Positions 13,031-63,978 of a stretch of 64,000 nt of DNA are shown here, in pieces. The notes under the pieces were generated by a model, which was not told the DNA's origin, did no database searches, and saw nothing but the letters and a program-made list of their open reading frames with translations. The stretch is from Deltaproteobacteria bacterium (GTDB lineage Bacteria > Bdellovibrionota_C > UBA2361 > SZUA-149 > JADLFC01): contig JADLFC010000116.1 of NCBI GenBank assembly GCA_020845775.1, positions 7,710 through 71,709 of the forward strand. The letters run 5' to 3'. Each line of letters opens with the position of its first letter. The stretch's first letter is position 1. A program made the translations under genes and the position numbers.

Positions 13031-14143
13031 ATGTCGAAAAAAGTTTGGTTGATTCTATTGAGCGCCATGCTGCTAGGCGGCTGCGGTGGAGAGAAAAATA
13101 ATGTCGTCAAATTGGCCGTTGTCTCACCGCTAACTGGAGACGTGGCGGCAATGGGTCAGGGCATGAAGCGGGGCGTGGACATGGCGGTGGACGAGGCAAA
13201 TGCTGCTAAGGTGCTTGGGGATAAGACCATCGTAATGGAGGCGTTCGATGACCGGGCCGATCCAAAGGAAGCGGTCAATGCAGCCAACCGAATTATCTCG
13301 GATAGGCGAATCCTCGGCGTTATCGGCCATCTCAACAGCGGGTGCTCAATTCCAGCCAGTCAGATATACGCCAAACGCAATTTGGTGATGATCTCCCCGG
13401 CTTCTACCAACCCCAAGCTTACTTTGCAGGGTTTAAAAAACGTGTTTCGCGTCTGCACCACAGACGATGTGCAAGGCTCGCAGGCCGCGGATTTTGCAGT
13501 CCAGACGTTGAACGCCAAGCGGATGGCAGTAATCCACGATAAAACCGCCTATGGCCAGGGGCTCGCTGAGAATTTCCAAAAACGGGCTCAAGAATTGCAA
13601 GCCGAGGTCACAGGGTTTGACGGCATCGACATTGGAGACAAGGATTTTAAAGCTCTGCTAACCGCTATTAAGACCAAGCAACCTGAGCTTATCTATTTTG
13701 GCGGCATGTACACCGAGGGCGGCCTGCTTACTAAGCAGGCTAAGGAGCTCGGCCTAAACATGCCACTGCTTGCTGGAGACGGCAGCTACACGCCGGAATA
13801 TATAAAAATCGGCGGCAAGTCCTCGGAAGGCGATTACGTTACCACCATGGGCGTTAATCCGGAAGACCTCCCCCTGGCCAAGGGTTTTCTGGAGAGATTC
13901 AAGGTTCGCTATCCGGGAGTGGACATGCAGCCGTACGATCTCTATTCCTATGAAGCAGCGAATCTGCTAATCGCGGCCCTGGCTGAGGCTAAACTAGATC
14001 CCACTAAAATTCCAGCCACCGTCGCGGGCATAAATTATGCTGGAATTTTGGGCACCACCAAGTTTGACCAGAACGGCGATACCTTGAATAAGACCATTAG
14101 CATTTACCAAGTCAAGGACGGCAAATACGCGTTTGTAAAGTAA
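13031..14143 (+). CDS. livK: Branched-chain amino acid ABC transporter substrate-binding lipoprotein, LivK/LivJ family
   Basis: Lipoprotein signal LLGGCGG; type-I periplasmic binding fold; followed by livHMGF. Confidence 0.8.
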   Translation: MSKKVWLILLSAMLLGGCGGEKNNVVKLAVVSPLTGDVAAMGQGMKRGVDMAVDEANAAKVLGDKTIVMEAFDDRADPKEAVNAANRIISDRRILGVIGHLNSGCSIPASQIYAKRNLVMISPASTNPKLTLQGLKNVFRVCTTDDVQGSQAADFAVQTLNAKRMAVIHDKTAYGQGLAENFQKRAQELQAEVTGFDGIDIGDKDFKALLTAIKTKQPELIYFGGMYTEGGLLTKQAKELGLNMPLLAGDGSYTPEYIKIGGKSSEGDYVTTMGVNPEDLPLAKGFLERFKVRYPGVDMQPYDLYSYEAANLLIAALAEAKLDPTKIPATVAGINYAGILGTTKFDQNGDTLNKTISIYQVKDGKYAFVK

Positions 14144-14181
14144 GGGCGCGATTAGCGCACGGCAACTCCGGAGAAAAACCC

Positions 14182-15069
14182 ATGCTCCTACAGCAACTTG
14201 CCAATGGCCTGACTCTTGGCAGTATCTATGCGCTGTTCGCACTAGGGTATACAATGGTCTACGGCGTATTGCTGATGATAAACTTTGCCCATAGTGAAAT
14301 TTTCATGGTGGGCGCCTATTGCGGCCTCGGCATTTTAAGCCACCTCGCTCTGGGAAACTCAGCGTCCCTGCTGTTTGTTGTTATTTCGGCTGCACTCCTG
14401 GCCGCCGGCCTGCTCGCGGTGTTGGTCGAACGCGTGGCTTACCGACCACTGAGGCACGCGCCGCGGCTGGCCCCGCTAATCAGCGCCATCGGCATTTCAA
14501 TTTTCCTGCAAAATGCCGTCATGCTCGGCATCAGCGCCCAATCACTGCCGTATCCGGAAAAAATCACCGTCACCCAACTCCAACTCGGGGGAGCAACGGT
14601 CAATTCACTACAAATTCTTATCTTCTCCCTGGCCATCGGCCTGATGCTGCTGCTTAACCTGTTTCTGCGCAGAACCAAACTGGGTAAGGCCATGCAGGCG
14701 ATTGCCCAGAACCATACCGTCTCACAGTTGATGGGAATCAATGTCAATGCCATTATTGCTCTGACTTTTTTCATCGGCGGCGGTTTGGGCGGAGTGGCCG
14801 GCGCACTCAACGGATTTTATTACGGCAGCATCAAATACAACATGGGTTTTTTTCCGGGAATTAAAGCTTTCACGGCAGCAGTGCTGGGCGGGATCGGCAA
14901 TATCCATGGCGCTATGCTGGGCGGATTCATACTCGGCATTCTGGAGGTCTTTGCAGCTGGATACATATCCTCAGAATACAAGGACGCCATTGCCTTTCTG
15001 GTGCTAATCGTGGTGCTAATCTTCCGGCCGGGTGGCCTCCTCGGAGAACAGATAACGGAAAAAATATGA
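14182..15069 (+). CDS. livH: Branched-chain amino acid ABC transporter permease LivH
   Basis: Polytopic membrane protein in the LivH position; ends with the conserved FRPGGLLG tail. Confidence 0.8.
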   Translation: MLLQQLANGLTLGSIYALFALGYTMVYGVLLMINFAHSEIFMVGAYCGLGILSHLALGNSASLLFVVISAALLAAGLLAVLVERVAYRPLRHAPRLAPLISAIGISIFLQNAVMLGISAQSLPYPEKITVTQLQLGGATVNSLQILIFSLAIGLMLLLNLFLRRTKLGKAMQAIAQNHTVSQLMGINVNAIIALTFFIGGGLGGVAGALNGFYYGSIKYNMGFFPGIKAFTAAVLGGIGNIHGAMLGGFILGILEVFAAGYISSEYKDAIAFLVLIVVLIFRPGGLLGEQITEKI

Positions 15070-16046
15070 AGCCGATCCGCTGGCCCGTCGCGGCCATTAG
15101 CCTTGGTTTTTTTCTGCTGCTCATACTCCCGCTGCTGCTCGGTCCAGACAACTCTTACGTGCTCTATATAGCAAGCCTTATCGGCATTTACGCACTGCTC
15201 TGCCTGGGGCTCAACATCACCATCGGCTATATCGGCCTGTTGGATCTGGGTTTCATGGCGTTTTATGCCATCGGCGCCTACTTGGCAGCACTTCTTAGCA
15301 TACGCGGAGTCTCTTTCTGGCTAATCCTACCAATCTGCGCGCTGGCCGGCGGCCTGCTGCGCTACCTACTTGGACGACCCATTCTAAAACTGCGCGGCGA
15401 TTACCTAGCGATCGTAACACTCGCTTTCGGCGAGATCACTCGCCTCGTTGCCAATAATGCCGTAGCTATCACCAATGGCCCCAAGGGGCTGCCACGGGTC
15501 GGCGAGAAGATGAGCGAGGTTAGCCTGCTCGGCGTGGTTTTTAATGACACCATCCATTACTATTATTTAATTCTCGCCATGGTGGCGTTTACAGCGGTTA
15601 TCAGTTATCGTCTGGAGCACTCGCGTATGGGACGCGCCTTTGTCGCTATCCGCGAAGACGAGCTAGCGGCAGAACTATCCGGGATCAACGTGGCACGTGT
15701 AAAATCCGTAGCCTTTGTGATAAGCGGCATGTTCGGCGCACTGGCTGGAGCTATATATGTGCACTGGATCGGATTCGTCTCGCCCGAGATGTTCACCTTC
15801 TGGGAATCGGTCTTTTTGGTCGCAATGATAGTGGTGGGCGGTATGGGCAACCTGACGGGTGTGGGACTGGGAGTGGTGCTCCTGGTCGGAATGCCGGAAG
15901 TCCTGCGTTCTACCTTGGGAACGCAGTTCGTGGATTTCCGCATGCTGGTATTTGGCTTAGTGATGGTGGTGGTAATTATCTTCCGACCACAGGGATTAAT
16001 TCCGTCCAGGCGCCGCTTATTGGAGTTGCATACGCCTAAAAATTAA
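15066..16046 (+). CDS. livM: Branched-chain amino acid ABC transporter permease LivM
   Basis: Polytopic permease translationally coupled to livH; IFRPQGLI tail. Confidence 0.8.
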   Translation: MKPIRWPVAAISLGFFLLLILPLLLGPDNSYVLYIASLIGIYALLCLGLNITIGYIGLLDLGFMAFYAIGAYLAALLSIRGVSFWLILPICALAGGLLRYLLGRPILKLRGDYLAIVTLAFGEITRLVANNAVAITNGPKGLPRVGEKMSEVSLLGVVFNDTIHYYYLILAMVAFTAVISYRLEHSRMGRAFVAIREDELAAELSGINVARVKSVAFVISGMFGALAGAIYVHWIGFVSPEMFTFWESVFLVAMIVVGGMGNLTGVGLGVVLLVGMPEVLRSTLGTQFVDFRMLVFGLVMVVVIIFRPQGLIPSRRRLLELHTPKN

Positions 16047-16053
16047 TGAGGCC

Positions 16054-16812
16054 ATGGCAGAGCTGCTAAACATCGAGCAAGTCACCAAGCGCTTCGGCGG
16101 ACTGGAAGCCGTCTCAGGCGTCAGTCTGCAACTTGCGCTATGCGAAGTGCTTGGGCTCATAGGACCTAATGGCGCGGGAAAGTCAACGCTGTTTAACCTG
16201 ATTACAGGTGTCTATGCGCCGGACGAAGGCAGAATTGTTTTCCGCAACCGGATGCTCAATCATCTTCCGCCGCATAAGGTAGTGGGAATCGGGATCGCCC
16301 GCACATTCCAAAACATTCGGCTGTTTGCCAACATGACAGCACTTGAAAATGTAATGGTGGGACGACACTGTCGCACCCGCGCCGAGCTGGCGGGGGCACT
16401 GTTACGCACTCCTGGCTTTCGGCAAGAGGAACGCGAAATTCGCGAGCAGGCGCGCGCGCTGCTAGACCGTGTCGGACTGTTAGAGCATGGCAATGAGCTA
16501 GCTAAAAACCTCTCCTACGGCGACCAACGACGATTGGAGATAGCCCGAGCTCTAGCAACAGATCCGGCTTTGCTACTGCTAGACGAGCCGACGGCCGGCA
16601 TGAACCCCAGGGAAAGCGCAGGCTTGGTCTCGCTTATTCAGACCATCCGCCAACAGGAAGTGGCGATAATCATTATCGAACACCAGATGGAGGTTGTGAT
16701 GAACCTCTCGGATCGGGTAATAGTTCTGGATTACGGCAAAAAAATCTGCGAGGGCACGCCGGCAACGGTGCAAAAAGACCCACGGGTTATGGAGGCGTAC
16801 CTTGGCACCTGA
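16054..16812 (+). CDS. livG: Branched-chain amino acid ABC transporter ATP-binding protein LivG
   Basis: Walker A GPNGAGKST; ABC signature LSYGDQRRLEIARAL; Walker B LLLLDEP. Confidence 0.85.
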   Translation: MAELLNIEQVTKRFGGLEAVSGVSLQLALCEVLGLIGPNGAGKSTLFNLITGVYAPDEGRIVFRNRMLNHLPPHKVVGIGIARTFQNIRLFANMTALENVMVGRHCRTRAELAGALLRTPGFRQEEREIREQARALLDRVGLLEHGNELAKNLSYGDQRRLEIARALATDPALLLLDEPTAGMNPRESAGLVSLIQTIRQQEVAIIIIEHQMEVVMNLSDRVIVLDYGKKICEGTPATVQKDPRVMEAYLGT

Positions 16813-17521
16813 ATCTTTGCTGCAATTGGAAAATCTGTCGGTATCCTATGGACAGATCGTCGCTCTACATGGAGTGTCTCTGCATATAGACGCCGGCGAG
16901 ATCGTAGCTATTTTAGGAGCAAATGGCGCGGGAAAGTCAACGCTCATCAACGCAGTTTCCGGCGTTGTGCCAATCCGCGGCGGCCGGGTGCTTTTTCAGA
17001 ACCGAGAACTGCAACAACTGCCAGCATGGCAAATCGCACGCCAAGGAGTGATTCAGATTCCGGAAGGCCGAAAGGTGTTTCCGAAAATGACCGTGCTGGA
17101 AAATCTGGAGCTCGGAGCCTTTCCGACCAAGAACCGAACGGTAGTGCGAACTCGACTTGAGGAAATGTTTGACCGCTTTCCCTTATTGGCAGAACGACGT
17201 CAGCAGCTTGCCGGCACTCTCTCCGGCGGAGAGCAGCAGATGCTGGCTATAGGCCGCGGGCTAATGGCTAATCCGCAGTTGCTGCTGTTTGACGAGCCGT
17301 CAATGGGTCTCTCTCCGGTCATGGTAGAAAAGGTTTTTAAGATCATCAATGATATAAATCGACAAGGCATAACCGTGCTACTGGTAGAGCAAAACGCCAA
17401 CAAATCGCTCCGGATCGCAAATCGGGCTTATGTTTTGGAAACGGGGAAAATCGTGCTATCCGACACCAGCGCCAATCTACTCGAAAACGATGAGGTAAAA
17501 AAGGCCTACCTGGGAGTCTAG
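16802..17521 (+). CDS. livF: Branched-chain amino acid ABC transporter ATP-binding protein LivF
   Basis: Walker A GANGAGKST; ABC signature LSGGEQQMLAIGRGL; Walker B LLLFDEP. Confidence 0.85.
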   Translation: MAPESLLQLENLSVSYGQIVALHGVSLHIDAGEIVAILGANGAGKSTLINAVSGVVPIRGGRVLFQNRELQQLPAWQIARQGVIQIPEGRKVFPKMTVLENLELGAFPTKNRTVVRTRLEEMFDRFPLLAERRQQLAGTLSGGEQQMLAIGRGLMANPQLLLFDEPSMGLSPVMVEKVFKIINDINRQGITVLLVEQNANKSLRIANRAYVLETGKIVLSDTSANLLENDEVKKAYLGV

Positions 17522-18121: not shown

Positions 18122-21100
18122 TCATACCAACTCAATGTCTACTATTACCGGCAAATGATCTGAGGCAATTCTCGTTAGCTCATTGTGCGGCACGAAACTA
18201 TCAATTACCTTAATGCCCTCACTCACAAAGATATGATCGATGCGGCAAACCGGCCACTGAACATGCCAGGTATTGGAACCATTGCCAACCGACAGCGGAT
18301 AGCGCTCTAACGAACTCGAGTCCTCTTCTCCACTGTGCGCATCCACAAGCACTTCCTTAAACATTCTACACACCTTCGACCGCGGCGTGGCATTAAAATC
18401 TCCACATACTACGATTGGCCCTATACATTTTGGGTTTTTTACCCATCCTTTCCCCAGTAAACTTTCCGCCTGCAACTCCCGTTCTTTGCGCTCCAACCCC
18501 ATATGGGTATTGATTACCTGCAACTTAACTCCATTTCCAACATCAACTTCAACCCACAAAGCACCCCTGGGTTCTACATCCGCTCTCTTCACCTGTCGCG
18601 GCAATACGCCTGCCTTCTGAAGACTCATTGCGTACCTGCTTAAAATCGCATCGCCATAGCGCTCCTCCTTAACATGCATAGCAGGAGAAAAGTGAAATAC
18701 CATCTCGAGCTCATTAGCTATTGCCCGAGCCTGATCTAGGTGTTCAGAACGAGCTCTCCCGACATCGATTTCCTGTAACGCTATAATATCCGGTGAAAAT
18801 CTCTCGATAACCTTAGCAATCCTAGCAGGCGAAAGCTTCCCATCCATGCCTACGCACGAATGAACGTTATAAGTCATTACTCGAATAACGCGATTATTTC
18901 TCTTGCGCACTCGCCACACATCGCTAGTCGCCTCATCGACTGGCACTCCATGTAAATACCTATAGGCCTCCTTATATAGATCGCTAAATTTTAAATGCGC
19001 TCGACCCTCCTCTCCAATGTCAATTCCTCGCGGGAATATCCCAAATGCGTGCGTCTCCTCCGGGCCTGGCCCAGCATGCGAACCACTCTCTATGGGAAAT
19101 GACACCGTCTTAGCACCTAATCTCCAGCCAGAAATAACTAAATCGCCCGCTTCGCGATGATTACAATATTCGACGATGTCCTCCAATACATCTGAAAGAA
19201 ACGGATGCTGCTCTCCGAACACTACACTGCCATCGCGCGGTAGTTCGTACTCGCCAGCCTGATTGATTGCTAACACTTTGTCGCCAACCACAAACATTAC
19301 CAAAGGAACATGTGCCTCTCGCACAAGCCTTTGCGACATCGCCTTCTTCTCGACGAGAGACAACCTCTGCTTGCAATATATATTGCCTAGTGGGCCAAGA
19401 GCGGTAACGACAACTTTCTCGCCTTCCACCGCGCTAAAATCCCACTTGGGCTTTCTCAACAGCTTCTGCAACCAGCGGCCACCTATCCAACTTGCGCGAC
19501 CAAACAAAACGCTGTCGCGATATCTGCCGACCGCATTACTCGAAGTCTCCTTTGACGATACAACATCTTCACACAACTTCTTAACCGCCTCCTCAATACT
19601 TCTACCTTCCTCCTCAAGATAAGACACGGTATCTTCCTGCCCATGGTCTGAATATATCCACACCTCGTAGTCTCTGCGCGGCGATAGGCGCGCGGCGCGC
19701 CAGATACGTTTTATCGATGCATCAATCCCCTTAAGCGTCCAATATGCAAATTGAGAACTCGGTCCACGCCGATGCGCCTGTTCGTCATACCCCAAAAAGT
19801 TAACATGGATAACAGGCAACCCTCGAAAAGCATCCATAACCGCACCTGCCGTCACCATCTCGCGAAGCAGGATGCAAATTGCAACCCTCGTCGGAACAAA
19901 AACAATCTCCTTAAATAAATCCCTGCCTGCTATAAGTCCATTAACGCAATCCACTACTGCCAATACCGCCTCTATAAACATAAGCGCCAGGCATCTAATC
20001 ACAGTAACGCCATGCCAAATAGCTACGCCCAACAATTTCCAGGGATTTACCAGCTCAAAAACACTTCCCCACCCAAAGGCTGCCGGACAAAAACGCGCTT
20101 CAGCCGCCCCACCAGAATATATGTTAGAGCTCGAACTCCCTCCCTTCAAAAGCCCATCCCCAGCTTCCCGCAGACGCTTTTCTACAATCTCGGCACTAAC
20201 TGGATCTGACATCTTAAAAATTCGACCCAACTCTCTATCGAAAAACTCAAAACCAACAACTCCCATCTTCTGATTATAAAACAACTCGCCCTGAACGGAC
20301 GGCGTGCTAGAAGGCAAGCCAGAATATATGCTACGCAACTCATAACCTTGCTTCCTTACAAGGCGTCGCAAAAATCTTAGCTTTCCAGCATCACAAGCCT
20401 TCTCAAAGTTCGGGCGCGATAAACCATCTATTTGAATCATTATTAGCCCTGGCTTCGAGTCCGCATTAGTAGCGCACCACAACCCTAGCAGTTTGACCAT
20501 CAACTCCCCGCGACTAAACAGTATTCGCAGTTTGCGAATTTGGCGAACGATCTTGCGCACCCATCTCAAGCGAGAAAGAGTTGCAAAAAAGAATGCGTGC
20601 CTAAAAGCTTTTAGCGTTGTCTCTAGTAGCTCATATTCAACTTCTATTCTTCTCTGAGCCTCCGACCACGCGCTGTTATCAATGTCCTCTATCTTAGGCC
20701 CCTCGGTTAATAACTTCTCATACACATCTAAAACCCTAGCGGCACACCGCTCAATAGATAGAGACTGCGCTGTAGCTCTGGCGCCCACACTTAACGACAA
20801 ACGATTATCCACGTTACTAGCGCCAATGCGCTCAATCGCCGAACAAAACGCCTGCCTGTCCTGCCCACCTAACAAGAACCCATTTTCCCCAGTTCTAACT
20901 ATCTCGCGTACTCCTGGCGCATCAAGAGCCACGACTGGCACACCCGCCGCCATCGCCTCTGTAATGACCATCCCCTGCGTTTCAGATAGGGACGAAAACA
21001 CAAACACATCCATCGCGTGATAACTGTCAACTAGATCCTGACCCTCCAAGGAGCCCACACTATACAACCTATCCCCAAGTCTTGCCCGATTAAATATAGC

Positions 21101-21844
21101 CTCAGCTTCCTTTTTGCTTGGCCCATCTCCAACTAGCAGAAACCGAGCATGTGAATTTGTAAGACAAAACTTCTTTAGCGCTTCAACCAAGAATACTAAA
21201 TTTTTTTCCGGCGCTAATCTTCCAACATGGCCGACAACAAACGCATCAAGCGGTATTAAACGCCCCGCACGAAATCTTTTGCCATCGCCAGCCGCAAATC
21301 TCTCCACATCAACCCCAGTCGGAACGACTGCGATCGGAACTATCACACCGCGACTCAACAAAATCGCTTTGATGCTCTCGCTAGGCACGATGACCTGGTT
21401 GCAGAGATTTGCATATCCAGTAGCTAACTGAATTACAAACTCCTTCATCTCCGGGGAGTCCCCTGGAATATAATGGGTGTAGTGCTCGTACATGGTGTGA
21501 TGAGTAAACACCACCGGCACCCTGTGAACGGCAGCTATCCGAAGAGCTGTGTCTCCCAAAAGAAAGGGATGATGCGAGTGAATAATGTCTGGCTCGAATT
21601 CACTCACTGCGGCATACAGCGATGCGGAAATGGGTAACTTTACTGAGAAATCACTTCCATTAAAATTCTGAATGGCAGGAATGCGAATTACATCCTTCTC
21701 CTCAGCTGGAAGATTTGGAAATTCGGGAGCTAATATCAGCACCCTATGGCCCAGGCGCCGGTAGGAGTCCGCAAATTGGCTCACCGATCTTGCCACCCCA
21801 CCGACGTGTGGCAAATAAGTATTTGTAAGCATCAATATATTCAT
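18122..21844 (-). CDS. 1240-aa tri-domain fusion: N-terminal GT4 glycosyltransferase, central alkaline-phosphatase-superfamily (nucleotide pyrophosphatase/phosphodiesterase-like) core, C-terminal endonuclease/exonuclease/phosphatase (EEP) domain
   Basis: GT4 motifs LTNTYLPHVGGVARSV and ETQGMVITEAMAAGVPVV; AlkP/NPP-like motifs IMIQIDGLSRPNF, YSGLPSSTPSVQGELFYN and VWIYSDHGQ; EEP motifs MTYNVHSC, IALQEIDVG, VVCGDFNATPRS and SDHLPV. Confidence 0.7.
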   Translation of the reverse strand: MNILMLTNTYLPHVGGVARSVSQFADSYRRLGHRVLILAPEFPNLPAEEKDVIRIPAIQNFNGSDFSVKLPISASLYAAVSEFEPDIIHSHHPFLLGDTALRIAAVHRVPVVFTHHTMYEHYTHYIPGDSPEMKEFVIQLATGYANLCNQVIVPSESIKAILLSRGVIVPIAVVPTGVDVERFAAGDGKRFRAGRLIPLDAFVVGHVGRLAPEKNLVFLVEALKKFCLTNSHARFLLVGDGPSKKEAEAIFNRARLGDRLYSVGSLEGQDLVDSYHAMDVFVFSSLSETQGMVITEAMAAGVPVVALDAPGVREIVRTGENGFLLGGQDRQAFCSAIERIGASNVDNRLSLSVGARATAQSLSIERCAARVLDVYEKLLTEGPKIEDIDNSAWSEAQRRIEVEYELLETTLKAFRHAFFFATLSRLRWVRKIVRQIRKLRILFSRGELMVKLLGLWCATNADSKPGLIMIQIDGLSRPNFEKACDAGKLRFLRRLVRKQGYELRSIYSGLPSSTPSVQGELFYNQKMGVVGFEFFDRELGRIFKMSDPVSAEIVEKRLREAGDGLLKGGSSSSNIYSGGAAEARFCPAAFGWGSVFELVNPWKLLGVAIWHGVTVIRCLALMFIEAVLAVVDCVNGLIAGRDLFKEIVFVPTRVAICILLREMVTAGAVMDAFRGLPVIHVNFLGYDEQAHRRGPSSQFAYWTLKGIDASIKRIWRAARLSPRRDYEVWIYSDHGQEDTVSYLEEEGRSIEEAVKKLCEDVVSSKETSSNAVGRYRDSVLFGRASWIGGRWLQKLLRKPKWDFSAVEGEKVVVTALGPLGNIYCKQRLSLVEKKAMSQRLVREAHVPLVMFVVGDKVLAINQAGEYELPRDGSVVFGEQHPFLSDVLEDIVEYCNHREAGDLVISGWRLGAKTVSFPIESGSHAGPGPEETHAFGIFPRGIDIGEEGRAHLKFSDLYKEAYRYLHGVPVDEATSDVWRVRKRNNRVIRVMTYNVHSCVGMDGKLSPARIAKVIERFSPDIIALQEIDVGRARSEHLDQARAIANELEMVFHFSPAMHVKEERYGDAILSRYAMSLQKAGVLPRQVKRADVEPRGALWVEVDVGNGVKLQVINTHMGLERKERELQAESLLGKGWVKNPKCIGPIVVCGDFNATPRSKVCRMFKEVLVDAHSGEEDSSSLERYPLSVGNGSNTWHVQWPVCRIDHIFVSEGIKVIDSFVPHNELTRIASDHLPVIVDIELV

Positions 21845-56413: not shown

Positions 56414-58342
56414 TTAGGAAAACATATAAGTAATATCGTCCCAGGGATGGCGATACAAAGTCTGTCTAAGGCGTTTTTGATCCATTACATGACCCACGAT
56501 ACCAATGGCTCTACCCACTACAAATAGGCCATTTAAAAATCCCAAGGCTACTATATCTGCTATCTCTTTTGCATCAAAAAGACCAGTTGATTCCAACATG
56601 TCTATGAAACTAACACCAACTGCTCCATCGACGTTCAATATTAATGTACCTTTTTTCTTTGTAGTAAATTTTTCAACTTCAATGGCATAATCGAGATACT
56701 TCGTGCTTGTGAAGTTTGCTCGCGCGAATTGCTTAATTAACTCGACGCGCTTATCAGGATTTTGTATTGACTTAACGCGATGCCCGATACCAGGAATCAC
56801 TTGCTCCTTCGCTTTCATCTCTTTGGCAAATTCCTCCGGAGATAGCCCTCGATCGCATGCATCTTTGAATGACTGGGCCGCCCCATCGATAGCACCTCCA
56901 AATAATGGGCCAATTGTGAGCATACCTGACGCCACTGCCGATACCAAATCCTTGCCAGCCCGCGCCGCAACAATTGCATTATGCGCACCAGAAACTGCTG
57001 GGCCATGATCTGCTACGACGACCAGCAACATGTCGATAAACCTCTTGGCGTAATCTGGCAGGTGCTTTTTAAACCATAATAATCCAATAGTTCCACCAAC
57101 CCCATATCCCTCCTCGATAACACGAGAGATTTCGCAACCACTATAAGTAAGTTCCTCGCCGCGATCGTCGGAAATTGTAGAAATAAAGCTCGTCGGCTTC
57201 CTTACTAATCCCTTTTGTTGCGCAACTTTAAGGTCTATAGGAACGGTAACAGGCGGTGGAACGGAAATTTCTTTAACCTCTCCTCTTGCAACTAGCTCCC
57301 GATAAACATCGTGAATTAACTCCCCAAATTCATCATAAGACCGAGGAACAATAGCTCCTGCCTTAGCTAGCGCTTTGTTTTTTTCTGATGCATTTTCTTT
57401 TTGCCTATCTGCCCGTGCGCCGGCATGGCCAAACTGAACCTCGCCTGGGAAAAGCCGAGAACAGGTTCCTACCACCCATGCCACGAGTGGCTTAGTAATT
57501 GCGTTCGCTCGAAGCGCTTCGGCTATTTCATATTCTCCCTCGCCACCAACTTCTCCGAGAAGCACCAACATCTTTATGTCGGGATTAGCCTCAAATCGCA
57601 GCAAATGGTCGACAAGCCTGGAGCCGGGATATCTATCTCCACCAATGGAAATACCCTCGTTTAGGGCTGGGAAAAACTGCCCATCAGCATTTTTGGGCCC
57701 GCACGCCAATGCCATGGCATTGTACATTTCATTGGACATCCCACCAGATTTAGAAACAAAGCCGACAAAACCAGGAACATGTAAATGAGTCTGTATGATA
57801 TTTTCTATAGATCCAGCCGTATTTCCGATCTTAAAACAGCCTGGCTTTATGCCACCAACTGTGGCGGGGCCGATGATCCATTTCTTCCTCGAATCTGCTA
57901 CGACTATGAGCTCCTTAGTCCTCCTCTCGGATATCCCCTCAGCAACGATAGCCACGGTGCGAATAGAAGGCTGTTCCAACGCCTCGCGCGAAGGCTGGTA
58001 CGCCGATCGAAATGATGCAAAGTTAATAAACACATCCGCACTGCGGTGGCGCTGAACGGCATCCTCGATAGAACGATAAATTGGTATAAAGATTTCCTTA
58101 CTGCCCCAAAAGCAGGTATGAATACCTGGCCTCGATGGATACACTATGGCTGCAACAGATGGGGTTTTTCGTCTACAGGCAAAATCGAAATCTAACATAC
58201 GCTGAATCGCAGCGGTTTGATAATTGTAAATGATTGCTTGCGTATCGCTAGTAAAAAGTTGATAGTCCGCAGTTGCAGAACTATCTTCTTCAGAAAATCC
58301 AGATGCCTCCGCTAAATTGCCAGCCATGTGCGACATAACCAT
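56414..58342 (-). CDS. aclA: ATP-citrate lyase alpha subunit (CoA-binding and CoA-ligase domains plus citrate-synthase-like domain)
   Basis: Near-collinear with the eukaryotic ACLY C-terminal region: IIGPATVGGIKPGCFKIGNT, SKSGGMSNE, GGDRYPGS, catalytic QFGHAGA, TVADHGPAVSGAHN, GIGHRVKS and LYRHPWDDI. Confidence 0.9.
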   Translation of the reverse strand: MVMSHMAGNLAEASGFSEEDSSATADYQLFTSDTQAIIYNYQTAAIQRMLDFDFACRRKTPSVAAIVYPSRPGIHTCFWGSKEIFIPIYRSIEDAVQRHRSADVFINFASFRSAYQPSREALEQPSIRTVAIVAEGISERRTKELIVVADSRKKWIIGPATVGGIKPGCFKIGNTAGSIENIIQTHLHVPGFVGFVSKSGGMSNEMYNAMALACGPKNADGQFFPALNEGISIGGDRYPGSRLVDHLLRFEANPDIKMLVLLGEVGGEGEYEIAEALRANAITKPLVAWVVGTCSRLFPGEVQFGHAGARADRQKENASEKNKALAKAGAIVPRSYDEFGELIHDVYRELVARGEVKEISVPPPVTVPIDLKVAQQKGLVRKPTSFISTISDDRGEELTYSGCEISRVIEEGYGVGGTIGLLWFKKHLPDYAKRFIDMLLVVVADHGPAVSGAHNAIVAARAGKDLVSAVASGMLTIGPLFGGAIDGAAQSFKDACDRGLSPEEFAKEMKAKEQVIPGIGHRVKSIQNPDKRVELIKQFARANFTSTKYLDYAIEVEKFTTKKKGTLILNVDGAVGVSFIDMLESTGLFDAKEIADIVALGFLNGLFVVGRAIGIVGHVMDQKRLRQTLYRHPWDDITYMFS

Positions 58343-58386
58343 TCTAGTGTTTCTCCGTCATAATAAATAACACAAGTGATGTTCAG

Positions 58387-59664
58387 CTAAACTGTCAAAG
58401 CCTTACTAACTATTTTTGTCATATGCAATTCCGGCCCGTAAACCTCCATCGGCAACCCTAGCTCAAGCCCAAGTTGCTGCATCTTTGAAAGACCCTCAAC
58501 ATAGTTTGGTCCTCCACGCCTGACATATATTTTGGCCTTAACTCGTTTCAGCGCTTCCGAATACTCCTTAATAGCTCGACAAATGCCATTAAATGTTTTC
58601 GCCACATCTGTGAAGTTCGCAATTCCACCGCCAATTAGCAGAATTTTTTCTCTACCCTTCGGATCTAACTCTTGCGTCATCAATCCAATAACAGTCCTCG
58701 CGTAATCATAAGTTTCTTCATCAGTTGGATTGCCGGAATATTCTCCGTAATTAGCGAGCTCCTCTCCATAGCCAAGGTCAACAACAGTATCGGCAAAGAT
58801 TACTGACGCGCCACCCCCGGCTACCATTGTCCAAACTCGCCCTTGTGGGTTTAACACCGTAAACTTTAGCGATGCGCCACTCTGAGCGTCTAGATGATTT
58901 ATATGGCGCTCCTCGTTAGTACTCAACCTACCAAACGGAGGAGGAAATGTAAGCCCAGCCCAAAGCTTTCCTCCTTCGAACTCTGCCGTGTCATCTAGTT
59001 TCGCTGCGAAATCCAAAACGACGATCCGACCATCTACAAACGCCAATGGGTTTATTTCAGCATAAGAGAATCCCGCAGCAACGTAGAGTTTATAAAGGGA
59101 TTTGATAAAGGACGCGATTACAGGCCTTCTTTCGACACCGATGTCTTTTAGTAGCTTTGAGTCTAAGTCAAGCGCATCTATATCATCAAAAACTTTCACC
59201 ACGATTTTTTCAGATATGCTATCCACATCGCCGATTTCAACCCCTCCTTGTCGAAAAAATAAAATCTCATCGCCTTCTCTGACAGAACGAATCGCCAAAT
59301 AATATTCGTACTTCACCTCATGTGGAACAAAACACTCTACGATAAAAGTATCCAATATACCTGTTATGCCATCAACCGCCACAGATTTATTCATATGTTC
59401 AAAAACCCATCGCACCACCTCGTCCCAACCTGCATTGAGCAATACTAAATTACTATTGCCTCGCCTTTTTATTAGTTGATCCGGTTTTGCAACCAGTTTG
59501 GAATTCAAAAGCCATGGATGCTCAGCTACGACAGCGTCGAGATCAGTCGCTGCGCTTAGCTGCACACAAGGATTAGCGACGAAACAATCAGTCGTTGAAA
59601 ATTCCCTAAAGTGCAAATCCAAAATCTTCTTCCCATCATATTCGCGAATTGATCGACTAGCCAT
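58387..59664 (-). CDS. aclB: ATP-citrate lyase beta subunit (ATP-grasp). The ORF extends to 59691; the start at MASRSIREY is preferred
   Basis: Matches the ACLY N-terminus: SIREYDGKKIL, VAKPDQLIKRRG, LNPQGRVWTMVAGGGASV, ELANYGEYSGNP and IGGGIANFT. Confidence 0.9.
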   Translation of the reverse strand: MASRSIREYDGKKILDLHFREFSTTDCFVANPCVQLSAATDLDAVVAEHPWLLNSKLVAKPDQLIKRRGNSNLVLLNAGWDEVVRWVFEHMNKSVAVDGITGILDTFIVECFVPHEVKYEYYLAIRSVREGDEILFFRQGGVEIGDVDSISEKIVVKVFDDIDALDLDSKLLKDIGVERRPVIASFIKSLYKLYVAAGFSYAEINPLAFVDGRIVVLDFAAKLDDTAEFEGGKLWAGLTFPPPFGRLSTNEERHINHLDAQSGASLKFTVLNPQGRVWTMVAGGGASVIFADTVVDLGYGEELANYGEYSGNPTDEETYDYARTVIGLMTQELDPKGREKILLIGGGIANFTDVAKTFNGICRAIKEYSEALKRVKAKIYVRRGGPNYVEGLSKMQQLGLELGLPMEVYGPELHMTKIVSKALTV

Positions 59665-59752
59665 TTGAGATCTACCTATAAAGATTTCCAAAAAAATAAA
59701 TACGCTAGCATGGATTTGCTAGGAAATCAAGAATTGTGGATAGGCTGGAAAA

Positions 59753-59789
59753 TATACCATTTACAAAAATCCTTTTTGCAAATGGTATA
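59753..59789 (-). terminator. Solo copy of hairpin A of the repeat family, positioned as a stem-loop 11 nt downstream of the cyclophilin stop
   Basis: TATACCATTTGCAAAAAGG/ATTTTTGTAAATGGTATA read on the minus strand, followed by TTTTCC; AT-rich stem, so terminator activity is uncertain. Confidence 0.45.
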
Positions 59790-59799
59790 ACTGCGCCTT

Positions 59800-60435
59800 T
59801 TATTGAGCTTGTGTGCCTTTAGCGTCTGCTACGCGTGACAGCTTAGGGAAATTAGCATCCAATACGGTGTTCCATTTCGCTACATTGGCCTTTTCCTTTT
59901 CCAATAACGCTGAAACATTGCCTTCGACAACAATGCGAACGATTTTATCGCCCTGAGCAATGCCATTTACCACATCCTGACCACTAGTTACCTTGCCAAA
60001 TACCGAATGCTTTCCATCAAGCCAATCCGTAGCAACATGCGTAATAAAAAACTGACTTCCATTAGTGGCTGGCCCTCTGTTCGCCATAGAAAAAACTCCT
60101 GGACCAGAATGCTTTAAAGTTGGATCAAACTCGTCCTCAAAGGAATATCCTGGACCACCAGTGCCATCGCCTTTAGGATCCCCAGTCTGAATCATAAAAT
60201 TGGGGATAACGCGATGAAAAGTTATTTCGTCATAATAGCCGCGCTGCGCCAAATTGACGAAATTTGCAACAGTGCGAGGGACTTTGTCGCCAAACAACTC
60301 TCCCTTTATCGCTCCCTTTGTCGTCTCAATAGTTACCTGAATATTTGAATCCGCAAATGCCGCCATCTTTGTTACCCCTATAGCTATTACAAAAAACAAT
60401 ATCAAACTCGCCTTTCTCATATCATCTCCTAACAA
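59800..60435 (-). CDS. ppiA: Cyclophilin-type peptidyl-prolyl cis-trans isomerase, secreted
   Basis: [26 protein letters not shown] and [10 protein letters not shown]...NGSQFFI; N-terminal signal peptide. Confidence 0.88.
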
Positions 60436-60489: not shown

Positions 60490-61488
60490 CTAAAAGTCCG
60501 CTTGCGCAGCGTCACCATCTCTACCTAAACGCTTTTCTAACTGTCTCCTTACTTGCCGCAAGCGAGCAACCTCCTTTGTTAAAGGAACGGGATTCTCATC
60601 GCCAAATTTCTTGGCTAAAGCTATCTTATAATTTAACTTAGCCCTTGCCGCCTTGCGCTTCCTAACGCTTAGCCTATCAGCCATAGCGGTTGTCTTAGCT
60701 GCCTCTTGCAGGTGAACAGATAACTCTTGCATATAAAAAGAAAGTTCCGGCACATCCGCTAAACCCCTACCAATTGCCAGCAAGCGCTCTAACCTTGCCC
60801 TTTCGGCTTGCTTGCTAACCTCATCGCTCTCGAGCTCGGCCAATCTAGTCTTAAGCATTATGATGTTATCTACGCCCGCTATGCGCGAAGCATCTTCTCG
60901 CACTTCATTCAAACTCTCCTCTAACTCAGACATCTGATATTGAGCAAGGTTTAGCAATGAATTAAGATCTGCTACTGCCGCCTCTACTGCCTCAATTCCC
61001 TTATAATTAGACAGTAGTTCGGCCATGCTCCACTCGACAACTGGGGTGGCTGCAAACTGAGACTGCTCCCCTACAAAGAAAAAGGTAAAGCGAAGTATAG
61101 CTCCCATCTTATTTGCTATTACCGATGGCAAAATGGCTCCCACTTGAAAATACTTCCTCCCAAGCTTAGAACCTTTGCCAAGATCCTTTTCAATAAAAAC
61201 GGCCGGAAAATGCTTAACCTCTCCGCCTTCAATTAACAGAAAAGCTTTAATCGGAACAAATGACAAAAACACGTCCTGATCTACGACATAGTTAGATGGC
61301 TCAGATTTTATCTGAGCTACAGTAACAGCACTTTTATCGCCTTGTTCCTGAGCCGCGACAAAAAACCCTTGCAGGCAAACTACATGCACGACAAAAAAAA
61401 GCCTCACTAATGCTAAGGCATACCTAGTCCAAGCGTTTGCGTTCCCAATTAGCGTTAGTAGCTTCACAAAAAAAATATGCCTCATCAC
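60490..61488 (-). CDS. Membrane-anchored coiled-coil protein (hypothetical), translationally coupled downstream of the type-III ATPase operon
   Basis: N-terminal hydrophobic segment, about 150-aa globular region, then a C-terminal heptad-rich region LEESLNEVREDASR...LERLL; ATGA overlap with the upstream gene. Confidence 0.45.
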   Translation of the reverse strand: MMRHIFFVKLLTLIGNANAWTRYALALVRLFFVVHVVCLQGFFVAAQEQGDKSAVTVAQIKSEPSNYVVDQDVFLSFVPIKAFLLIEGGEVKHFPAVFIEKDLGKGSKLGRKYFQVGAILPSVIANKMGAILRFTFFFVGEQSQFAATPVVEWSMAELLSNYKGIEAVEAAVADLNSLLNLAQYQMSELEESLNEVREDASRIAGVDNIIMLKTRLAELESDEVSKQAERARLERLLAIGRGLADVPELSFYMQELSVHLQEAAKTTAMADRLSVRKRKAARAKLNYKIALAKKFGDENPVPLTKEVARLRQVRRQLEKRLGRDGDAAQADF

Positions 61489-62597
61489 CCTCCCAACAGC
61501 TTATTCCAAAATGATTTTTTCTCCTCTGCCGGACCGGTTTCTCCTGGCGCCTCCGGCTTAGCAGATTCCTCGCTCTGATGCTCAAGTTCTTTTTCTAGTT
61601 CCTCTATTTTTCTCTTCTCGGCTGCAATTTCGCCATAGAGAACTTGAATGTTCGCTGCAATTCTATATCGCTTTTCCAGCGCGCTGAGATCAATGGAGGA
61701 GCCTGCACCACTTGCCCCGAGCTCGCCAAAGCCACTAGCCTCATCATCTGTTTGCCAGTTAGCCATATACCATCTCTGCTCCCGCTCGGCGACGCGACGG
61801 GCCAAGGCAATTGATTTTCCTCGCTTTGTAATTCTCTCAAGCAAACTCAGTTCACTTATTAAGCCGTTAATCTGCTTGTCGAGCTCGTCCCGGCGGGAAG
61901 ACACGTCGCGAACTTCTGTCTCCAACTTAGCAACTTGTTCACTTGCCTTTGCGCGAAGAGTATCCTCATCGGTGACTACTCGAGTTAATTTTTCCTTTTT
62001 TCTCTTTATCCTTTCTATAACATTTGCTGTTTTGGTAGCTCTACGCCTCAACCAACTAAGTTGCACCTTGCTCTCTAACCATTTACGAAACTCCTCCTCG
62101 GAAACACTTAATCCGCTAGGTTCATTTACAACGCCACTCTGAGTAATTGGCCTGATTCGCCAGCTACCGATGCGTTTTCCTGCGAAATCTACATTTCCGG
62201 TATATCCGCCCTCCTCTAGCGCGCCAGTTAATAGGAACTTTCTTCCTTCGCTCATTAACGCAACTGGCTTATAATGGTCGGTGCTACCCTGAACGTCCTT
62301 GCCGTTAATTCGATCAGTGCCCACTTCAAAAGGAACTAGCTGCGGAACCCAACCAGGATTGAAAATAACCATTAGTAAGGCTGAGGCATTAAAAGCTTTC
62401 TCAACGTAAAATGTTTGAAACTTATTTTTTGCAGTCGTAATCCCAGATATCTCGCCGGCATAAGTGCCATCGGGTAAGGCCGGAAACGTTCGCTCCCCAC
62501 TGCCAATAACTAGGTACAGAAATATGCCGACGACTAGCGTAACAACGATTGAATAGAACGCCAAAGATTTCTTATTGGGAGCAGCAATTTTAGGCAT
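61485..62597 (-). CDS. Membrane-anchored coiled-coil protein (hypothetical; FliJ-like role possible)
   Basis: N-terminal transmembrane helix FYSIVVTLVVGIFLYLVIG, a globular domain, then a long charged coiled coil and an acidic tail; 7-bp gap after the ATPase gene. Confidence 0.45.
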   Translation of the reverse strand: MPKIAAPNKKSLAFYSIVVTLVVGIFLYLVIGSGERTFPALPDGTYAGEISGITTAKNKFQTFYVEKAFNASALLMVIFNPGWVPQLVPFEVGTDRINGKDVQGSTDHYKPVALMSEGRKFLLTGALEEGGYTGNVDFAGKRIGSWRIRPITQSGVVNEPSGLSVSEEEFRKWLESKVQLSWLRRRATKTANVIERIKRKKEKLTRVVTDEDTLRAKASEQVAKLETEVRDVSSRRDELDKQINGLISELSLLERITKRGKSIALARRVAEREQRWYMANWQTDDEASGFGELGASGAGSSIDLSALEKRYRIAANIQVLYGEIAAEKRKIEELEKELEHQSEESAKPEAPGETGPAEEKKSFWNKLLGG

Positions 62598-62604
62598 TTG
62601 AAGC

Positions 62605-63978
62605 TCAAGATATTAACGAACGCGCTCGTCGCAGTGTATCACCAAACTCTGCGCCTTCAGTTTGTCTTTGAATTAGGAATTTTGCAATACTATCTCGTTT
62701 AGCTATAGCTTCGTCTATGAGTGGGTCACTACCACTCTTGTATGCACCAATAGAAATTAGATCTCTATTGTCTTCATAAGCCGCCCAAAGTCGTCGAATC
62801 TCCTCTGCCATTCGATAGTGCTCCGGCGACACCAAATTCAGCATCAATCTACTATTGCTACGAAGCAAATCAATTGCCGGATAATGTTGCATATGACTAA
62901 GGCGCGAACTCAGATACAAATGTCCATCCAAAATAGCGCGAATCTCCTCGCCGAGTGGATCCTCGATGGTTTCTGAGGATAGTAAAATGGTATAAAATGC
63001 CGTAATGCTGCCTTTGGCCGTCTTACCAGCTCGTTCCAGCAATTCTGGGAGCGTAGCAAAAACAGACGGCGGATAACCTTGTCGTACTGGGGGCTCGCCT
63101 ACACTAAGAGCTATTTCGCGCAAAGCCCTAGCAAATCTCGTAACCGAATCCATCAATAACATCACTCTGTTGCCCTGGTCGCGAAAATACTCAGCTATAG
63201 CGGTAGCCGTATAAGCTGCCATTATTCTCCTAAGCGGTGGTTCATCGCTAGTCGACACAACGACTATAGATCTACTAAGCCCTTCCTTACCCAGATTGTC
63301 CTCTAAGAAATCTATAACCTCTCTTCCCCGTTCACCCACTAAAGCTACAACATTCACATCAGCCGTACTGTTTCGTGCAATCATCCCCAAAAGACTTGAC
63401 TTGCCAACACCTGCACTTGAGAAAACACCAACGCGTTGCCCCTCTCCGGTAGTCAACATCATATCTATAGCACGAACGCCCACATACATAGGCTCAGTAA
63501 TTCGTCTACGCATCATGGCTGCCGGGGCCGTCTGTCTGACAGGATAAGCCAGGGAAGTATCGATAGACCCCAAATTGTCTATCTCCTTGCCCAATGAATT
63601 TAGAACCCTGCCCAAAAGAGCCGGCCCAACATTAACCTGTAGTGACTCCCCTCTATTAACCACGGGAGTTTTTGGACCCACCTCGTGCAATGGATCTAGA
63701 GGAGTGAGAAAGATATCTTCATCATCAAATCCTATAACCTGCGCATAAACCGGCGGTCGTCCATGAGGCTCGATTGTGCACAACTCTCCAATGCGTGCGT
63801 TGGGTAGACGAGCCTTGATGACCATACCAGTTATTCTTTGCACCCTTCCACGCAATACTACTGGCAGTGGTCCTTCGGCATGTAGGCGCCTATGAAGATT
63901 ATCCAGGCTAATATCATTAGCAAAACTAAACCTTGGCTTAGCTAGCCATTCCTTCAGAAGCGCCGAGTCATCAGGCAT
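62605..63978 (-). CDS. fliI: Type III secretion / flagellar export ATPase, FliI/SctN family
   Basis: Walker A GVFSSAGVGKSSLLGMIAR; Walker B VMLLMDSVTRFARALREI; GYPPSVF motif; N-terminal oligomerisation beta-barrel. Confidence 0.85.
   Translation of the reverse strand: MPDDSALLKEWLAKPRFSFANDISLDNLHRRLHAEGPLPVVLRGRVQRITGMVIKARLPNARIGELCTIEPHGRPPVYAQVIGFDDEDIFLTPLDPLHEVGPKTPVVNRGESLQVNVGPALLGRVLNSLGKEIDNLGSIDTSLAYPVRQTAPAAMMRRRITEPMYVGVRAIDMMLTTGEGQRVGVFSSAGVGKSSLLGMIARNSTADVNVVALVGERGREVIDFLEDNLGKEGLSRSIVVVSTSDEPPLRRIMAAYTATAIAEYFRDQGNRVMLLMDSVTRFARALREIALSVGEPPVRQGYPPSVFATLPELLERAGKTAKGSITAFYTILLSSETIEDPLGEEIRAILDGHLYLSSRLSHMQHYPAIDLLRSNSRLMLNLVSPEHYRMAEEIRRLWAAYEDNRDLISIGAYKSGSDPLIDEAIAKRDSIAKFLIQRQTEGAEFGDTLRRARSLIS

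Follow-up and report, generated by a model that had tools for sequence, protein, structure and literature searches.

Does an intact ATP-citrate lyase (ACL) in a bacterial genome mean that the organism fixes CO2? The question is raised by aclB-aclA, a gene pair on contig JADLFC010000116.1 of an uncultured "Deltaproteobacteria" bacterium (assembly GCA_020845775.1), in a stretch of 64,000 nucleotides that was analysed as a whole and is called here the window. The aclA and aclB genes are in routine use as markers of carbon fixation by the reductive tricarboxylic acid (rTCA) cycle in metagenome surveys, and an earlier note on this DNA had given the pair that reading. Our analysis leads to another view: the two genes are predicted to encode a functional heteromeric ACL (EC 2.3.3.8) of the ACLY / Methanosaeta (Methanothrix) concilii type, for which citrate cleavage in a heterotroph is judged more likely than a step of an autotrophic rTCA cycle.

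Identity of the AclB and AclA proteins

The complete domain set of the enzyme was found in the two products. AclB matched the ACL-specific ATP-grasp family Citrate_synth_N (PF24948; 2e-76, score 257 against a cutoff of 83 bits) and the ACL citrate-binding domain Citrate_bind (PF16114; 1e-81), and AclA matched Ligase_CoA (PF00549; 1.7e-14) and, in its C-terminal part (residues 432-631), Citrate_synt (PF00285; 6e-24). Among the proteins of known structure in the PDB, the top scores for the pair were those of M. concilii, where AclA aligned end to end with ACLY-B (6hxi_B, 795 bits) and AclB with ACLY-A (6hxi_A, 438 bits). Human ACLY gave 751 bits with AclA over its residues 491-1094 and 413-417 bits with AclB over residues 1-419, and the identity to the structurally solved ACLYs was 58-60% over the full length.

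Every catalytic and citrate-binding residue that was checked against human ACLY is kept in AclB and AclA (Table 1). Among them is the catalytic aspartate of the citryl-CoA lyase module, D572, which is also aligned with the aspartate changed to alanine in the M. concilii mutant structure 6znw; the citrate-binding motifs of AclB read GEYSG, GGGIANFT and RRGGPNY. The AclB domains, the GHAGA loop, the fused lyase module and the position of aclB directly upstream of aclA are the features by which membership of the heteromeric ACLs was assessed, and all are present. The NCBIfam output held no ACL-named model; models for succinyl-CoA ligase, citryl-CoA lyase and citrate synthase were returned, all far under their own cutoffs.

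By homology to the solved enzymes, the reaction would start with the binding of MgATP to the ATP-grasp domain of AclB and the phosphorylation of H306 of AclA. The phosphoryl group would then move to citrate in the citrate-binding domain of AclB, giving citryl phosphate, which would be attacked by coenzyme A (CoA) held on the N-terminal module of AclA to form citryl-CoA. Finally, the citrate-synthase-like C-terminal module, which would also form the core of the tetramer, would cleave citryl-CoA to acetyl-CoA and oxaloacetate by means of D572, H446, H521 and R522.

Two other forms of the enzyme were considered and rejected. The first was a pair made up of a citryl-CoA synthetase (CCS) and a citryl-CoA lyase (CCL), the Aquificaceae type, as in Hydrogenobacter thermophilus (6hxq, 6hxp), where homologous modules carry out the same chemistry in two steps. 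In H. thermophilus the lyase is a separate protein, whereas in the window one 642-aa protein combines the lyase module with the CoA-ligase module, a fusion that defines ACL; the scores likewise speak against this form (60 bits to 6hxq_A, 60 to 6hxp_A and 47 to 6hxq_B, against 750-795 bits to ACLY). The second was the single-chain ACLY of eukaryotes, to which the sequence similarity is high; nonetheless, the window carries two open reading frames (ORFs) with a stop codon and 44 nt between them. The animal enzyme (6poe, 3mwd) is collinear with the pair and has the same catalytic and citrate-binding residues, but its two halves are joined in one chain by a regulatory linker (about residues 420-490), which is absent from the window pair.

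These results bear out part of the earlier note, which had described a two-subunit, eukaryote-like ACL aligned with animal ACLY, including the QFGHAGA loop and the citrate-synthase-like C-terminus, and had named a place of AclA among the citryl-CoA synthetase/lyase enzymes as a finding that would speak against it. The gene names aclB-aclA were also right, as the Pfam domains of both proteins fit them, and the limits 56414-59664 were exact. The raw ORF of aclB is slightly longer than the gene, and we set the start at the ATG at 59664 (425 aa, MASRSIREYDGKK...) because it is aligned with residue 1 of M. concilii ACLY-A and of human ACLY.

The AclA protein is already annotated in GenBank, as MCC6221066.1 ("ATP citrate synthase [Deltaproteobacteria bacterium]"), with a start 5 codons further in (637 aa), on a MAG contig of 72.5 kb, and it is an ordinary added member of a known family. 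An identical 642-aa AclA, flanked upstream by the same aclB and downstream by the same glycosyltransferase genes, was found in two independent read-set assemblies (SRR30202054 and SRR11294019); therefore, the locus is not an artefact of assembly or binning.

Type of the enzyme and its relatives

The ACL of Chlorobium limicola (6hxj), archetype of the rTCA enzyme, shares with the window pair the reaction, the two-subunit layout and the order of domains. However, its scores were far lower, 370 bits with AclA and 139 bits with AclB, and the Chlorobiaceae enzyme is part of an experimentally established autotrophic cycle. A HMMER search of 1.84 billion cluster representatives returned 324 clusters at E <= 1e-30, and full-length cluster representatives, related genomes and PDB references were combined in a neighbour-joining (NJ) tree (86 sequences, 597 columns, 200 bootstraps). 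In corrected distance the window enzyme is 0.62 from M. concilii, 0.68 from human and 1.20 from the Chlorobiaceae representative (P0296), so that the Chlorobiaceae ACL is about twice as distant as human ACLY. As judged from its sequence, the enzyme is thus of the human / M. concilii type rather than of the Chlorobium rTCA type. The branching order among eukaryotic, archaeal and bacterial ACLs was not recovered at depth by this tree (10-48% support).

Nearer to the window the tree was clear. AclA lies inside a subclade of 21 members with 100% bootstrap support, and all 21 carry an insertion of 10-12 residues in the CoA-ligase module, which was found in 0 of 84 other sequences, among them those of human, M. 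concilii, Chlorobiaceae and other Bdellovibrionota. The M. concilii enzyme, archaeal in origin, is like the window pair in having two subunits in the same gene order, full-length alignments and identical catalytic residues, but it is without the 10-residue insertion (ACGP...PAL), as is human/animal ACLY. The named members of the subclade are metagenome-assembled genomes (MAGs) of Vicinamibacterales (71% identity), Bacillota (68%) and Bdellovibrionales (67%), a mixed taxonomy that indicates horizontal spread. Two other ACLs of Bdellovibrionota (L024 and L059) form a separate clade, also with 100% support.

The searches also returned ACLs of unusual build. Thirteen AclA-like proteins (P0002-P0013 and P0021), of about 1000-1040 aa, have an internal duplication: behind a complete AclA come a second, partial CoA-ligase module and another citrate-synthase-like module. 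The catalytic motifs of the lyase are degenerate in the first copy (ADRDP for ADHGP, GIGHC or GIGY for GIGHR) and intact in the second. To our knowledge, this duplicated architecture fits no ACL form described so far. In a Thermoplasmatota MAG (JAQUQK010000054; locus L040, 4725-7970), aclB and aclA form one continuous ORF of about 1080 aa, which could be a eukaryote-like fused ACL in an archaeon, either as a true fusion or as a sequencing artefact at the stop codon. Many fused ACLs of about 1000 aa, rich in Lys, Asn and Ile and 36-45% identical to the window AclA (P0255, P0260, P0262, P0263, P0269, P0274, P0278-P0285 and P0305), fall together with certain two-subunit forms in the NJ tree.

When one genome per GTDB species was scanned, 521 relatives were confirmed, and the counts that follow refer to the best 80 of these 521 (56-71% identity). 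They comprise 52 archaea (Thermoplasmata, Bathyarchaeia, Methanothrix, Hod- and Promethearchaeota, Altiarchaeota and Micrarchaeia) and 28 bacteria (Elusimicrobiota, Syntrophaceae/Syntrophus, Anaerolineae, Bdellovibrionales, Oligoflexia, Vicinamibacterales, Bacillota, Desulfuromonadaceae and records whose only label is "delta" or Pseudomonadota). An affiliation with the ACLs of demonstrated rTCA autotrophs (Chlorobiota, Nitrospirota, Campylobacterota and Aquificota) was tested and did not appear: Chlorobiota, Nitrospirota, Nitrospinota, Aquificota and Campylobacterota are all absent from these 80 species-level genomes. The premise that the bacterial two-subunit ACL is confined to a few autotrophic lineages, from which the rTCA reading had started, is therefore outdated, since the 80 hold other bacteria as well as the archaea. 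Microbes that are not autotrophs widely have an ACL of the human/archaeal type, and its presence alone therefore does not show CO2 fixation. Published work, too, holds that autotrophy cannot be diagnosed from ACL by itself (PMC9560492) and that the rTCA cycle is incomplete in many taxa with ACL (bioRxiv 10.1101/2022.10.25.513756).

Gene context and physiological role

What, then, would the enzyme do in this organism? All 80 related genomes have aclB immediately before aclA. An aconitase gene adjoins the pair in the same orientation in 63 of these, and 34 have an isocitrate dehydrogenase (IDH) gene there as well, in the orders acn-aclB-aclA-icd or acn-icd-aclB-aclA (loci L002-L081). The aconitase-linked genomes are mostly those of anaerobic archaea, Elusimicrobiota and Syntrophia, and the linkage points to a conserved module joining acetyl-CoA and oxaloacetate with 2-oxoglutarate, a citrate / 2-oxoglutarate module of interest in itself for these three groups.

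A module of this kind brings to mind an ACL that works towards citrate, as a citrate synthase that conserves ATP and feeds an oxidative TCA cycle, or the oxidative branch to 2-oxoglutarate, in an anaerobe such as Desulfobacter postgatei. The reaction lies near equilibrium (delta-rG'm about -8 kJ/mol; PMC13147460) and is described as fully reversible (PMC12137691); according to Moller et al. (1987), as cited in PMC9768450 and PMC12137691, D. postgatei oxidizes acetate via a cycle in which ACL serves ATP synthesis. For the window pair, however, we regard this direction as quite improbable. The linkage to aconitase and IDH is absent from the window aclBA and from four of the five closest subclade relatives with annotated flanks, the subclade relatives have neighbours of aerobic type and their genomes would be expected to code for an ordinary citrate synthase, and nothing in the window points to anaerobic life. 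The aconitase/IDH-linked anaerobes that make up most of the wider clade are a better match for the citrate-forming role than this locus is. The exception within the subclade is L003, in which the aconitase linkage is present; in L004 the linkage is absent, as judged by BLAST only.

The window pair thus stands alone, whereas in Methanothrix genomes an aconitase gene comes directly after aclBA. Around the stand-alone aclBA of a Vicinamibacterales chromosome we found genes for pyrroloquinoline quinone (PQQ), a flavin mononucleotide (FMN)-dependent dehydrogenase, a cbb3-type cytochrome and a glucose dehydrogenase; in one metagenomic relative with a stand-alone pair, a gene for the E1 component of 2-oxoglutarate dehydrogenase lies 5 kb upstream, and two further stand-alone relatives have unrelated neighbour genes. 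No synteny beyond aclBA was found when all the window proteins were compared by tblastn with the 80 related loci, and therefore no closely related genome is at hand for context.

In the eukaryotic cytosol, ACLY cleaves citrate for the supply of acetyl-CoA. By analogy, we favour for the stand-alone two-gene aclBA an ATP-driven cleavage of citrate that would supply acetyl-CoA and oxaloacetate in a heterotroph, with a probability of roughly one half. This role is favoured because the pair stands alone, because the genomes of the subclade have a heterotroph or aerobe flavour and because the enzyme is distant from the ACLs of rTCA type.

The place of the enzyme in an autotrophic rTCA cycle, as the citrate-cleaving step, was weighed against these same observations. 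ACL is the classical key enzyme of that cycle (PMC13147460, PMC9560492), the window enzyme appears catalytically intact by residue conservation, and autotrophy by the rTCA cycle has been proposed, from genomes alone, for some uncultured lineages that have ACL (PMC8542988). Partner enzymes may lie in the rest of the genome, beyond the 64 kb. On the other hand, the enzyme belongs with those of ACLY / M. concilii type and is remote from the ACL of Chlorobiaceae, and the classical rTCA phyla are missing from the best 80 of the 521 genomes. No gene for 2-oxoglutarate:ferredoxin oxidoreductase (OGOR), pyruvate:ferredoxin oxidoreductase (PFOR), fumarate reductase or PEP carboxylase was found among the approximately 50 ORFs of the window annotated with Pfam, and aclBA does not cluster with TCA genes, as no other gene for an enzyme of the TCA cycle occurs in the 64 kb. 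Its closest relatives, moreover, occur in genomes with features of aerobic heterotrophs, including the 2-oxoglutarate dehydrogenase E1 mentioned above.

The identity of the host bears on the same point. The nearest named relatives of the MnmG protein encoded in the window are MAGs of Bdellovibrionales, Bdellovibrionota and Oligoflexia (60-62% identity, none above 62%), and the "Deltaproteobacteria" MAG is, tentatively, Bdellovibrionota-like. Bdellovibrionota are known mainly as predators and heterotrophs, which argues against the rTCA cycle in this host. Together, these data do not support the reading of the pair as an rTCA marker, and we consider an autotrophic role unlikely.

The mixed taxonomy of the subclade, spread over unrelated phyla (Acidobacteriota, Bacillota and Bdellovibrionota), indicates horizontal transfer, and an acquired remnant with little or no physiological role could be imagined; so could a substrate other than citrate, given the clade-specific insertion in the CoA-ligase module. 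Both are highly improbable in our view, since the two ORFs are intact, the catalytic and citrate-binding residues are all conserved, the composition is fully ameliorated and the identical sequence recurs in independent samples. The composition of aclBA is indeed like that of the window (GC 0.44-0.46; GC at third codon positions, GC3, 0.40-0.41; codon-usage distance under the window mean), so that any transfer must be old. A recent horizontal transfer of the pair was therefore rejected; the mixed taxonomy of the subclade speaks for an ancient one.

Several points weigh against heterotrophic citrate cleavage as the role of the window pair. The heterotrophic or aerobic character of the host was taken from distant relatives and from neighbour genes in other genomes, not from this genome, and its placement among the Bdellovibrionota, which is tentative, comes from a single marker with an identity of about 60%. 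The genes for OGOR, PFOR and fumarate reductase could be located outside the visible 64 kb. The closeness to eukaryotic ACLY is one of distances and bit scores and not of resolved topology, as the NJ tree has low support (10-48%) at its deep nodes. Finally, with a citrate synthase in the same cell, citrate cleavage by ACL would be a futile cycle unless regulated, and no regulator was identified.

A wider proposal, which we put forward as a possibility with some reserve, is that the stand-alone, insertion-bearing subclade represents a bacterial ACL that is spreading horizontally and is no longer tied to the ancestral aconitase/IDH operon. Aerobic or predatory heterotrophs would use this ACL like the cytosolic ACLY of eukaryotes, to convert citrate to acetyl-CoA for the synthesis of lipids and the envelope. 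If true, the subclade would be a bacterial counterpart of the lipogenic ACLY and a reason to drop aclAB as a carbon-fixation marker in metagenomes. The main value of the locus, modest otherwise, is a caution against the use of aclAB as a stand-alone marker of this kind. It is a clean candidate for a counter-example, with an intact human/archaeal-type ACL in a Bdellovibrionota-like genome and no context of TCA genes, and its subclade is well supported and common to lineages known as heterotrophs; scoring such enzymes as autotrophy markers leads to an overestimate of carbon-fixation potential.

The locus and its surroundings

The positions of the gene pair, of its functional residues and of other features of the window are given in Table 1. 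As aclB and aclA are co-oriented and tightly spaced, they would be carried on one transcript. The leader ahead of aclB contains a hairpin and T-run, which may be either the terminator of the upstream cyclophilin gene or an element of the aclBA leader. The former is likely, and aclBA would then be a separate unit; the evidence for such a terminator is weak, as the promoter/terminator consensus scan gave no more sites than in shuffled sequence. A search of the whole window with Rfam at gathering thresholds gave no match in the aclB leader and thus no known riboswitch before aclB.

Table 1. Features of the aclB-aclA locus and of the window (positions counted from the first letter of the window).
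Feature	Position	Strand	Description
aclB	58387..59664	minus	ACL small (beta) subunit, 425 aa; ATP-grasp and citrate-binding domains
Raw ORF of aclB	58387..59691	minus	434 aa (ORF listing)
aclA	56414..58342	minus	ACL large (alpha) subunit, 642 aa; CoA-binding/CoA-ligase module fused to citryl-CoA-lyase (citrate-synthase-like) module
Phosphohistidine loop QFGHAGA	57416..57436	minus	H306 = human H760 (translation and alignment); residue phosphorylated in the catalytic cycle
LNVDGA, catalytic Asp of citryl-CoA lyase module	56621..56638	minus	D572 = human D1026 (translation and alignment)
AclA E135			Human ACLY E599 (alignment, full-length human ACLY)
AclA H446			Human ACLY H900 (alignment)
AclA H521, R522			Human ACLY H975, R976 (alignment)
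AclA R611			Human ACLY R1065 (alignment)
AclA R631			Human ACLY R1085 (alignment)
AclB G311, N350, T352, R383			Citrate-binding residues; human ACLY G309, N346, T348, R379
Clade-specific insertion ACGPKNADGQ	57677..57706	minus	10 residues in CoA-ligase module, after the helix following SKSGG
aclB-aclA spacer	58343..58386	minus	44 nt; GGAG 10 nt ahead of first aclA ATG (sequence read directly)
Leader ahead of aclB	59665..59800	minus	135 nt
Hairpin and T-run	59705..59722	minus	6-bp hairpin then T-run, between upstream cyclophilin gene and aclB, about 40 nt before aclB start (consensus scan and sequence)
livKHMGF-like operon	13031..17521	plus	ABC transporter
Three-part fusion gene	18122..21844	minus	1240 aa
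Putative export gene set	60490..63978	minus	FliI/SctN-family ATPase, then two coiled-coil ORFs
FliI/SctN-family ATPase	62605..63978	minus

The immediate neighbours of aclBA are the periplasmic cyclophilin gene and genes for glycosyltransferases. Elsewhere the window holds ordinary chromosomal genes (dnaX, recR, mnmG, rsmG, uvrD and those for a prepilin peptidase, a sigma-54 activator and MlaCDFE), a liv-type ATP-binding cassette (ABC) transporter, many glycosyltransferase and O-antigen genes and a FliI/SctN-family ATPase; neither rRNA nor tRNA genes were found in the whole window by Rfam at gathering thresholds and a tRNA scan. The combination of livKHMGF with lipopolysaccharide (LPS) genes had been offered in the earlier note as an aid in placing the organism. 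Both sets of genes are present, but the livKHMGF-like operon is a compositional island (GC 0.52-0.555 and GC3 0.55-0.64, against window means of 0.454 and 0.435) and probably a fairly recent horizontal acquisition; being foreign in composition, it is a poor guide to the taxonomy of the organism.

Two further regions were noted. The score of the FliI/SctN-family ATPase fell just short of the equivalog cutoff in the injectisome SctN model and in the flagellar FliI model alike. After its gene come two coiled-coil ORFs (370 and 332 aa) without a Pfam family, and together these genes may serve flagellar or non-flagellar type III export. Farther away, the 1240-aa product of a single gene joins a GT4 glycosyltransferase, a type I phosphodiesterase/nucleotide pyrophosphatase and an endonuclease/exonuclease/phosphatase domain, and this gene is followed by an ORF of 761 aa without a Pfam match.

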